A stretch of 64,000 nucleotides of DNA from a virus (lineage: Duplodnaviria > Heunggongvirae > Uroviricota > Caudoviricetes): IMG/VR virus record IMGVR_UViG_2718218100_000001. One strand, written 5' to 3'. Shown piece after piece: positions 30,001-33,000 of the stretch (position 1 is its first letter; every line of letters starts with the position of its first letter). The position numbers are program-made.

Positions 30001-33000
30001 ATCGTTATGGTTGCTGAGGATGGGAAACGACGCAATATGGTGTCCCTGCCGCTTCGAAAACTTGCAGGCTGGTTACAAACCATCAATCCCAACAAAGTAA
30101 AACCCGAAATCCGCGGCAAGGTAATCCAGTATCAGGAAGAGTGTGACGATGTTCTCTATGAATACTGGACGAAGGGTTTTGTCGTTAATCCCCGTAAAAT
30201 GAGTGTGATGGAAGAACTCAACCAGGCTTGCGCTGACATGAAACGGGATAAAAACATTGCCAGTGTGTTTGCTACCGGGCTGAATGAGTGGAAACAGGTT
30301 AAATCCGCGCATGTATCAAAAATCCGCACATTGATAAACGAAGCGAATCTGCTGATTGATTTTGTCCTGGCTGATACAGGCAAAGGGAAAATAACAAAGG
30401 CGGATTGATGGAGTGGTGGCTAATGATATCGGATAAACTCATAACGCTGGCGAAGATCCTCTGTGTAATCGTCGGCATTTCATTTTTAGTCATGCTGGTT
30501 GCCATTTTCTTTTCCACCGCCTGGCGAGTCCTGACGTTATCGGGACTGGTGGGGTGAAAGAGAGATGAACCGTGTTCTGTGTGTGGTGATTATTGTCCTG
30601 CTGGTAGCCTGTGGTGCGCTTAGTCTGGGGCTGAATCATTACCGTGATAACGCCATAACCTACAAAGAGCAGCGCGATAAAAAAGTCAGTGAGCTGGAGC
30701 TGGCAAATGCAACCATTACTGATATGCAGCAGCGCCAGCGTGATGTTGCTGCACTTGATGCCAGATACTCGAGGGAATTAGCCGATGCGAGAGCTGAAAA
30801 TGAAACTCTTCGCGCTGACGTTGCCGCTGGTTACCGCAGCCTGCGGATCAACGCCACCTGTCCAGGTCCCGTGCGTGAAGCCACCGGCACCGCCCGCGTG
30901 GATAATGCAACCGGCCCCCGACTGGCAGACACCGCTGAACGGGATTATTTCATCCTCAGAGAGAGGCTGATCACTATGCAAAAACAACTGGAAGGAACCC
31001 AGAAGTATATTAATGAGCAGTGCAGATAGAGTTGCCCATATCGATGGGCAACTCATGCAATTATTGTGAGCAATACACACGCGCTTCCAGCGGAGTATAA
31101 ATGCCTAAAGTAATAAAACCGAGCAATCCATTTACGAATGTTTGCTGGGTTTCTGTTTTAACAACATTTTCTGTGCCGCCACAAATTTTGGCTGCATCGA
31201 CAGTTTTCTTCTGCCCAATTCCAGAAACGAAGAAATGATGGGTGATGGTTTCCTTTGGTGCTACTGCTGTCTGTTTGTTTTGAACAGTAAACGTCTGTTG
31301 AGCACATCCTGTAATAAGCAGGGCCAGCGCAGTAGCGAGTAGCATTTTTTTCATGGTGTAATTCCCGATGCTTTTTGAAGTTCGCAGAATCGTATGTGTA
31401 GAAAATTAAACAAACCCTAAACAATGAGTTGAAATTTCATATTGTTAATATTTATTAATGTATGTCAGGTGCGATGAATCGTCATTGTATTCCCGGATTA
31501 ACTATGTCCACAGCCCTGACGGGGAACTTCTCTGCGGGAGTGTGCGGGGATAATCAAAAACGATGCACACCGGGTTTTCTCATTTTTCACGAGATGGGAG
31601 CGATTTCCCGCGAAGCCGCCTGTCCGGTGCGGTGGTGGAAGAAACCGGATAAAACAACCGCATTGTGCAAATATCGATCAAATATGGTGCTGCTGTGTGA
31701 AATCTGAAAAATCACAGCGGTCATTATGCATCAGTTTTTAACACAGGACGTCAGAACGTGACATGGCAAAGCTGGACTGGAAAAAGCTGGAGCAGGCATT
31801 CCGACGCGAACATGCCGAAACGGGAATAACATTACTGGACTGGTGCCGGAAGAAAAAGATTAATTACAACACCGCCAGAACCCGTATAAAAATGGGCAAA
31901 ATCGATCATGAAATTGATCATAAAACCGATCATGAAATCGATCATGACATCTCAGATGAAGAACCCTGCAATGACGCGGGTTCCGGCGATGAAAAATGCG
32001 CAAAAAACTCTGAAAAAAACTGCGCAAATTCGGCAGAAACGAAACGGATTCGTGGTTCCCGACTTTTACCACCTTCAAACGCTTTTTCTCAGCGAAACAC
32101 CTACGCCGTAAGACACCGTGGATATGCGAAGTATCTTGAGGCAGATAACCTCATGGATGATGCGTCCGACATGGTGCTGTTTGATGAACTGGTGTTCACC
32201 CGGGCCCGCGCACTTTCAGTAACTAAGGCACTTAAAGGGATGTTCGCCGACCTGGAAGAGGCAACTGACGTGGAAACCCGTGTTGCTCTTTACGACAAAA
32301 TACTCAAAGCTGAACAGGCCCTTGACCGGAATATTGCCCGTATCGAGTCAATTGAACGCTCATTGCTGACGCTGGACGTCCTGGCTGAGACAGCACCAAA
32401 ACTTCGTGCTGACCGGGAAAGAATCAACGCCGCCAGAGATAAACTCAGAGCGGAAACCGATATTCTGACCAGCCAGCGTCGGGGCGTTGTTACGCCTGTC
32501 AGTGACATCGTGTCATCGCTGCATGAAATGAGTAATTCGGGGAGACTGGATGACATTCCGGAAGAATGAACCGCGATGTGATGAGCCGTCAGAAATGACC
32601 GAGGCTGAACAACGTCTGTTCATTATGACAAAACTGAGCAATCCCTGGTGGCGGCTCAATCATCTCTACAAAATACAGAACGAAAAAGGTGAACTGGTCA
32701 CCTTCAGAATGCGACCGGCGCAGCGCCAGTTGTTCCGGAGCATGCACAATAAAAATATTATCCTGAAAGCACGCCAGCTGGGTTTTTCCACGGCCATTGA
32801 TATTTATCTTCTCGACCAGGCATTATTCATTCCGCATCTCAAATGCGGGATCGTCGCTCAGGATAAACAGGCAGCCAGTGAAATTTTCCGCACAAAAATT
32901 GCTGTACCGTTTGATCATCTCCCTGACTGGCTGAGAGCCTCATTCACCATCGTTGAACGTCGTAGCGGTGCCAGCGGTGGCTATATCCTGTTTGGTCACG

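Follow-up and report, generated by a model that had tools for sequence, protein, structure and literature searches.

The pac site of phage P1 occupies 161 bp inside the gene pacA and contains seven TGATCA/G hexamers, grouped as HEX4 and HEX3, together with a site for integration host factor (IHF); its cleavage is reported to be methylation-dependent (PMC10028697). In the annotated P1 record the pac cut lies between HEX4 and HEX3. HEX4 consists of four TGATCA hexamers, encoded as MIIDHSNDQHAGDH (pacA nt 194–233), shortly after the region for a helix-turn-helix (HTH) domain (aa 3–45). Here, we describe an array of four YGATCA hexamers in the small terminase gene, terS, of a Shiga toxin (Stx)-converting phage of the 933W type (Sepvirinae). 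The analysed stretch of 64,000 nt, IMG/VR record IMGVR_UViG_2718218100_000001, is referred to as the window throughout. Judging from comparison with related genes, this array is probably the proximal, TerS-recognised portion of a pac site used in headful packaging, with a nearby pair of TGCGCA hexamers as its distal part.

The virion DNA of phage 933W is probably terminally redundant, and the phage performs generalized transduction (PMC3752737); its terminase has served as a headful reference (PMC6029569). A literature search returned no defined pac site for 933W or other Stx phages, with subscription-only papers (e.g. the original 933W and P1 papers) outside its scope. Recognition of pac DNA by small terminases is still described as unclear, and the SPP1 site is described as offering a ring of HTH domains several points of contact (PMC9611059). 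The element considered here would provide a precise pac candidate for 933W-type phages (window positions 31898–32026, i.e. terS nt 136–264), a group that spreads Shiga toxin genes and is capable of generalized transduction.

Results and discussion

The hexamer array in terS

The gene terS (31763–32569, plus strand) encodes a protein of 268 aa that is assigned as small terminase subunit from its match, at E = 1e-124, to the “terminase small subunit” family PHROG 370; Pfam gave no match for this open reading frame (ORF). It is 99–100% identical to terS, or L0112, of 933W-type Stx phages, the 933W counterpart L0112 being annotated as “putative small subunit terminase”. Over the region 31600–32700, identity is 100% to the Stx1 phages AU5Stx1 and AU6Stx1 and 99.4% to 933W. 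The array covers positions 31898–31945, where AAAATCGATCAT GAAATTGATCAT AAAACCGATCAT GAAATCGATCAT make up four 12-bp units of the form RAAA-N-YGATCA-N. Its hexamers, the proposed TerS-binding sites of the proximal pac element, are CGATCA (31903–31908), TGATCA (31915–31920), CGATCA (31927–31932) and CGATCA (31939–31944), with GATC starting at 31904, 31916, 31928 and 31940. The exact 12-bp spacing of four GATC sites inside terS, which the initial annotation had pointed out, is confirmed by the sequence itself, by the PHROG 370 assignment and by Tandem Repeats Finder (TRF), which reports 31899–31951 with a period of 12, 4.4 copies and 82% matches. The array is in frame in terS and is read as the peptide K-IDHE-IDHK-TDHE-IDHD.

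No other spot in the window has at least three GATC per 60 bp. The nearest GATC outside the array are found at 31676 and 32849, and there is thus one GATC cluster only; likewise, all four occurrences of RAAANYGATCA in the window fall inside the array. GATC is depleted across the window, with 168 sites observed versus ~248 expected from base composition. The chance expectation for at least four GATC in 40 bp is ~0.02 clusters, a figure from a model that is of limited value for tandem duplication, and the weight is therefore carried by comparative and codon-level evidence. Two GATC-poor tracts were observed elsewhere, at 26001–30000 (one site in 4 kb) and 18001–22000 (three sites in 4 kb), the window mean being ~2.6 per kb. 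GATC-free regions in prophages have been reported in a methylome study on Escherichia coli strains that make Shiga toxin (PMC6602927).

A spacer of 51 bp (31946–31996) separates the GATC array from two TGCGCA hexamers at 31997–32002 and 32021–32026, each of which has an A-rich prefix and is read as Cys-Ala. The TGCGCA pair is proposed as the distal pac element, and the spacer is, by analogy with P1, a candidate region for the initial cut. Both TGCGCA sites are copies of a hexamer found family-wide (see below) and lie ~55–80 bp downstream of the YGATCA hexamers. A distal TGCGCA immediately upstream of conserved ETKR codons is common to the window, E. coli phage GER2 and Citrobacter homologs. 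The Cys-Ala frame of the two window sites differs from the commonest frame in homologs, xxT-GCG-CAx, which accounts for 104 of 139 sites.

The domain layout of TerS was taken from an AlphaFold2 model that used an alignment of 32 sequences and is useful only for domain boundaries. The model has an N-terminal three-helix HTH (aa 6–41, encoded by 31778–31885, plus strand) with helices at aa 6–20, 24–31 and 35–41 and a predicted local distance difference test score (pLDDT) of 76–89. This is followed by a linker predicted to be disordered (aa 46–108, encoded by 31898–32086, plus strand; pLDDT <50), whose coding region contains all of the hexamers, and then by a long coiled-coil domain. In this predicted structure the array begins where the linker does, at codon 46, right after HTH helix 3. 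Foldseek comparison of the model with the PDB returned generic coiled coils only, and a search of the PDB with the TerS sequence gave no match.

In the reading favoured here, the HTH domains of oligomeric TerS would bind the phased hexamers, each with an A-tract before it, and the bound TerS would recruit the large subunit TerL. The latter would make the first cut nearby, at a position that we infer, and processive headful packaging would then ensue. The hexamers are embedded where terS encodes a linker predicted to be disordered and protein constraint is weak. Their GATC cores would be Dam-methylated in vivo by host Dam, possibly also by phage Dam, and the methylation state may modulate binding or cleavage, as in P1.

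Conservation of the hexamers at the DNA level

Four copies of the unit were found in 37 of 38 IMG/VR loci from close relatives, and the four-copy form is dominant (protein clusters of 558 and 256 members); variants with 1, 2, 3, 5 and 7 copies occur in related prophages. Taken alone, this variation in copy number would fit a slippage-prone linker. A repeat that arose by slippage and is either neutral or selected for its peptide, with no function at the DNA level, would equally account for tandem 12-bp units in 1–7 copies and for their location in a linker of low pLDDT, and in a scan of IMG/VR, tandem repeats of GATCA with a 12-bp period were common among unrelated viral genes. The comparison of homologous genes speaks against such an origin.

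Quasi-repeats directly after the HTH are present in all of the best 120 TerS homologs. For comparison at the DNA level, a set of 30 homologs from species-representative genomes was used. Homologs from Citrobacter, Brenneria, Serratia, Yersinia, Aeromonas and Xenorhabdus have 3–8 palindromic TGCGCA hexamers in terS nt 120–270. Over the 30 homologs this interval contains 139 TGCGCA in 4.5 kb, versus 79 in 166 kb of flanking sequence, corresponding to 30.9 and 0.48 per kb, respectively, or a 65-fold enrichment. The sites are irregularly spaced (7–51 bp, commonest 9–14, i.e. 9, 10, 12 or 14 bp), are distributed over the three reading frames (104, 28 and 7 sites) and are preceded by the same AAA-N prefix as the GATC units. 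No description of TGCGCA arrays in terminase genes was found in the searchable literature. GATC-type arrays were recovered in two Salmonella homologs with ~60% aa identity to the window TerS. These (L073 and L074) have 5 and 3 YGATCA hexamers, respectively, at gene nt 141/153/165/177/189, which are the positions and the 12-bp phase of the window. The array peptides of the Salmonella genes are SDQK, SDHK and NDHE, compared to IDHE and TDHE in the window. Across the units of the three genes AAA and GATCA are invariant (12 of 12), and other positions vary.

The codons used in the linker were compared with those used elsewhere in the same genes. In TGCGCA-type genes, Ala in the linker pair A-[QH] is encoded by GCG in 110 of 114 cases versus 92 of 449 (20%) elsewhere, and the base before this codon is T in 109 of 114 cases versus 122 of 449 (27%). 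Fisher's test for the Ala codon gives p = 2e-54, with counts that are not phylogenetically independent. In seven GATC-type genes, Asp in the linker pair D-[QH] is encoded by GAT in 32 of 32 cases versus 80 of 150 elsewhere. Codon bias falls far short of explaining an effect of this size. The codon and comparative evidence shows the array to be a DNA-level element under DNA-level selection, with the peptide repeat as its by-product. For a slippage-generated repeat, this extreme codon preference would be hard to reconcile with a peptide-level or neutral origin. The hexamer and its phase are moreover kept under different peptides, homologs use three frames and irregular spacing, and other motifs take its place in domain-swapped variants. 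One homolog with seven YGATCA (L083, see below) has spacers that are non-repetitive. On balance, slippage without DNA-level function is very improbable.

A function at the level of DNA or RNA could also be regulatory, with the true pac site elsewhere. In such a case the hexamers would form an autoregulatory operator or roadblock bound by TerS that controls terS–terL, or mRNA hairpins that tune translation. The sites do lie within the terS transcript, and RNA of the region 31880–32040 folds better than shuffled sequences (z = −3.4), with neighbouring palindromic hexamers pairing. Such low folding energy, however, follows automatically from the palindromic nature of the repeats, spacing varies among homologs, which opposes a conserved RNA fold, and the equivalent hexamers of P1 are pac. 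An Rfam scan of 31000–33000 revealed nothing relevant, which counts against the hairpin version. We regard a regulatory element of this kind as quite unlikely.

Relation to PacA and to the HTH domain

PacA of P1 belongs to PHROG 1711, which is matched by the N-terminus of the window TerS (E = 2.9e-5); conversely, PacA matches PHROG 370 (E = 1.9e-4). Direct comparison of the two proteins by BLASTP gives E = 0.009, and hhalign places aa 6–48 of the TerS family profile on aa 3–45 of PacA (E = 1.5e-4). In an unbiased scan of IMG/VR for four GATCA at 12-bp phase, most matches were unrelated tandem repeats; the pattern alone is not diagnostic, and only loci in TerS/PacA homologs are informative. Two loci on P1-like contigs of ~92 kb (L094 and L141) encode PacA homologs, with E = 4e-31 and 2e-24 to PacA and E = 1e-11 and 3e-11 to the TerS profile. 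These proteins begin M(A/S)KV(D/N)W…NTARREL, and their genes have five TGATCA each, at exact 12-bp phase and right after the HTH. Locus L083 has a 933W-type TerS beside a window-like TerL, with seven YGATCA and non-repetitive spacers, and a fragment (L154) contains a TGATCA array of the same kind as these loci. With L094 and L141 as bridging homologs, and with L083, an “HTH plus hexamer array” module is, on the evidence of homology, common to P1-type PacA and 933W-type TerS.

Two further variants (P0067 and P0068) have an unrelated N-terminal HTH, yet the same C-terminal domain, TerL and portal. Their linker DNA contains no TGCGCA or GATC array. One of the HTH-swapped variants has CCGTCC-type repeats in three direct copies, two of which deviate by one base, and then GGACGG four times; in the other, three GGTACG precede two CGTACC-type sites, one of them truncated. 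In both, A-tracts lie between the repeats, at ~12 bp. At the swapped-HTH TerS loci L076 (2501–3334) and L077 (2501–3316), which have these two sets of linker repeats, direct copies precede inverted ones, an arrangement that may reflect a symmetric pac architecture.

Among the best 120 homologs, the helix-3 motif follows the repeat type without exception: ARR[YH][IL]K occurs with TGCGCA-type linkers in 85 of 85 cases, AR[TI][RQ]IK pairs with D[HQ], i.e. GATCA-type, linkers, and AKR[YH]IT pairs with the TTCGCA type. The latter is seen in a Pectobacterium/Brenneria/Symbiopectobacterium clade (L049–L051, L054 and L060), where (A/G)TTCGCA(A/G) in 5–6 copies replaces TGCGCA at terS nt ~160–230 and helix 3 reads AKRYIT. 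The repeat type changes together with the N-terminal HTH domain, a relation that is suggestive only, because the HTH lies next to the array and few clades are represented. We considered, and rejected, a simple code between HTH residues and hexamer type: clade is a confounder, and L083 and P1, in which a GRRY/ARRY helix occurs with TGATCA, do not obey it.

A large terminase family of enterobacterial and Aeromonas prophages, P1 PacA included, writes hexamer arrays into its own linker-coding DNA, with different hexamers for different HTH domains. This natural variation in sites and domains could aid the question of how pac is recognised.

Several observations weigh against the assignment of the array as a pac site. 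Support for TerS binding or for a cut is wholly comparative; the binding, the cut position and the effect of methylation are what we infer from it. The homology to PacA is weak (E ~1e-4) and extends over ~43 N-terminal residues, the rest of TerS being unrelated to PacA. TerL has no pairwise similarity to PacB by BLASTP (E = 3.6), and their shared match is only the broad PHROG 2. A consensus scan of 31700–32200 revealed no match to the IHF sequence WATCAANNNNTTR with at most one mismatch. HTH and array are adjacent in the DNA, which makes their co-inheritance partly trivial, and the independent lineages are few. With 1–7 copies in related prophages, some of which may be defective, four copies are not strictly required. 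Mixed arrays of TGCGCA and TGATCA exist in GER2, Salmonella and the window, so that TerS may not read the central dinucleotide and, with it, the methylation there. Finally, Stx phages have been called cos phages, with data not shown (PMC7566468). Deposited genome start points were considered as a clue to the termini and set aside, as the records of phi346 and phi419 end at terS only through re-linearisation at terL and the record note is generic.

Still, a pac site was also what the initial annotation had suggested, and this part of its proposal is supported by the position in terS, the P1 analogy and the comparative evidence. The part that drew on the phage's own Dam is not supported, the Dam module not being linked to the terminase, as detailed in the following.

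Dam methylation and the array

As stated in the initial annotation, the phage encodes a Dam-like enzyme: an N6-adenine methyltransferase of the Dam family is found in a nin-region module at 18581–19108 (plus strand; PF05869, E = 8e-65). Dam homologs such as M.EcoVT2Dam have been reported on Stx2 prophages (PMC6602927). The same ninB–ninE Dam module, at ~97% identity, is present in HK97, Sf6, HK140, lambda-like phages and Stx1a phages. HK97 is a cos phage, and the small terminase of Sf6 is not known to be related to the TerS of the window. Sf6 is a headful phage (PMC9611059). Since the Dam module occurs in phages with other packaging systems, it is not coupled to the window terminase. Co-occurrence of phage Dam and array was accordingly rejected as evidence, since the module is found broadly among lambdoid phages that have other terminases. 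In any case, the array sites would be methylated by host Dam; the phage Dam is a possible modifier with no specific link.

By analogy with P1, methylation gating of packaging at the array is plausible, and we put it forward tentatively. A broader and more doubtful proposal is that the Dam state of the four hexamers gates 933W-type packaging while the TerS/PacA superfamily switches its hexamer core between CG, which would be methylation-blind, and AT, which would be methylation-sensing. If gating is real, both the production of virions and generalized transduction would be coupled to the activity of host or phage Dam. Under the broader proposal, the embedded arrays would offer a naturally varied and tractable setting for the question of how pac DNA is read by rings of small terminase. 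The GATC version of the array would also allow a direct test of epigenetic packaging control outside P1.

Conversely, the array could serve pac recognition with Dam methylation being irrelevant: TerS would then read the outer bases of YG-NN-CA plus the A-tract prefix, and GATC would be incidental. This agrees with arrays in which TGCGCA and TGATCA neighbour each other behind a shared AAA-N prefix, with the non-methylatable cores in most of the TerS family and with the missing link between the phage Dam gene and the window terminase. On the other hand, cleavage in P1, whose HTH is homologous and whose hexamer is the same, reportedly needs methylation (PMC10028697), the centre of the hexamer presents the N6-methyl groups in the major groove, and pure GATC arrays are kept in several lineages. 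Irrelevance of methylation is therefore possible, if on the doubtful side.

The initial annotation had also considered a SeqA-binding cluster. SeqA needs at least two closely spaced hemimethylated GATC, and four GATC at 12-bp spacing would suit a SeqA-binding or Dam-regulated cluster that steers transcription or replication of the late region instead of packaging. To our knowledge, no promoter or origin function is known at the array, and the element follows the HTH domain of a terminase. Most homologs have non-GATC hexamers at the same place, and sites of the types TGCGCA, TTCGCA, CCGTCC or GGTACG would be unreadable by Dam or SeqA. A need of host Dam for stable 933W lysogeny, as cited in PMC3342100, would agree with a Dam-regulated cluster. 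Overall, such a cluster is extremely improbable as the primary function.

Neighbouring genes and other repeats

The gene terS is followed by terL, encoding the large terminase subunit (32550–34256, plus strand; PHROG 2, E = 1e-53, plus related families), and by a P22-like portal gene (34256–36400, plus strand; PF16510, E = 2e-128). The window thus contains the gene order terS–terL–portal with a terminase of headful type. terS and terL overlap by 20 nt (32550–32569), and an overlap of equal length is present in four Salmonella loci (L073, L074, L076 and L077), a hint that translation of the two genes is coupled. Between an Rz-like gene and terS, an ORF of 97 aa is found on the minus strand (31061–31354), with a lipoprotein-type signal, MKKMLLATALALLITGC; it may be lambda Bor-like.

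Other tandem repeats were noted in the window. A near-perfect microsatellite, (TATTTC)x12, is located at 21880–21950 (TRF, 98% matches), between a minus-strand ORF of 590 aa (19791–21563) and a plus-strand ORF of 215 aa (22064–22711), and is overlapped only by short, low-complexity ORFs. At 15661–15738, a unit of ~20 bp, CATCCCYCAAAACGAGGGA, is present in four copies (alternatively 39 bp in two copies) and resembles lambdoid replication-origin iterons. A 45-bp unit, GCAGGCCCACAGGGACCAAAAGGAGAA, occurs twice at 42480–42570 and would encode collagen-like Gly-X-Y, presumably in a tail-fibre gene. Finally, a 13-bp tandem repeat, AACCATAACGGCG, is present in 2.5 perfect copies at 29874–29906 (TRF, 100% matches).

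Comparison with known packaging systems

P1 pac is among the closest parallels. In both systems a GATCA core (one TGATCA and three CGATCA in the window) lies inside the small-subunit gene, the hexamers directly follow a remotely homologous N-terminal HTH, and the sites are Dam-methylatable. The exact 12-bp phasing of the window array is found also in the P1-like PacA homologs L094 and L141. Conversely, three of the window's four hexamers start with another base than those of P1, and the window has one GATC cluster of four strict tandem units where P1 has four plus three hexamers flanking the cut. The distal element of the window is a pair of TGCGCA, and neither the C-terminal domain of TerS nor TerL is PacA/PacB-like.

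P22 gene 3, Sf6 gene 1 and pacL–pacR of SPP1/SF6 are similar in that the site lies in or beside the small terminase gene; going by the reports on 933W, headful packaging and generalized transduction would be common features too. In P22, pac is one asymmetric sequence of 22 bp, in contrast to the present array, in which A-tracts precede short palindromic hexamers, and the P22, Sf6 and SPP1 TerS families are unrelated by sequence to the window TerS, which had no Pfam or PDB match. Lambda is a cos phage with cohesive ends that are defined and with bending assisted by IHF; the R-elements of its cosB are bound by gpNu1. They likewise represent repeated short sites for the HTH of a small subunit beside the cut site, but lie outside coding sequence and are unrelated in sequence. 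A further comparison is with the TGCGCA arrays of related prophages (Citrobacter, Yersinia, Serratia, Aeromonas and Xenorhabdus) and of E. coli phage GER2, which share the gene position, the AAA-N prefix and the TerS family with the window. The arrays of the prophages differ in having the core CG instead of AT, and hence no Dam target, and in their irregular spacing compared to the strict 12 bp of the window.

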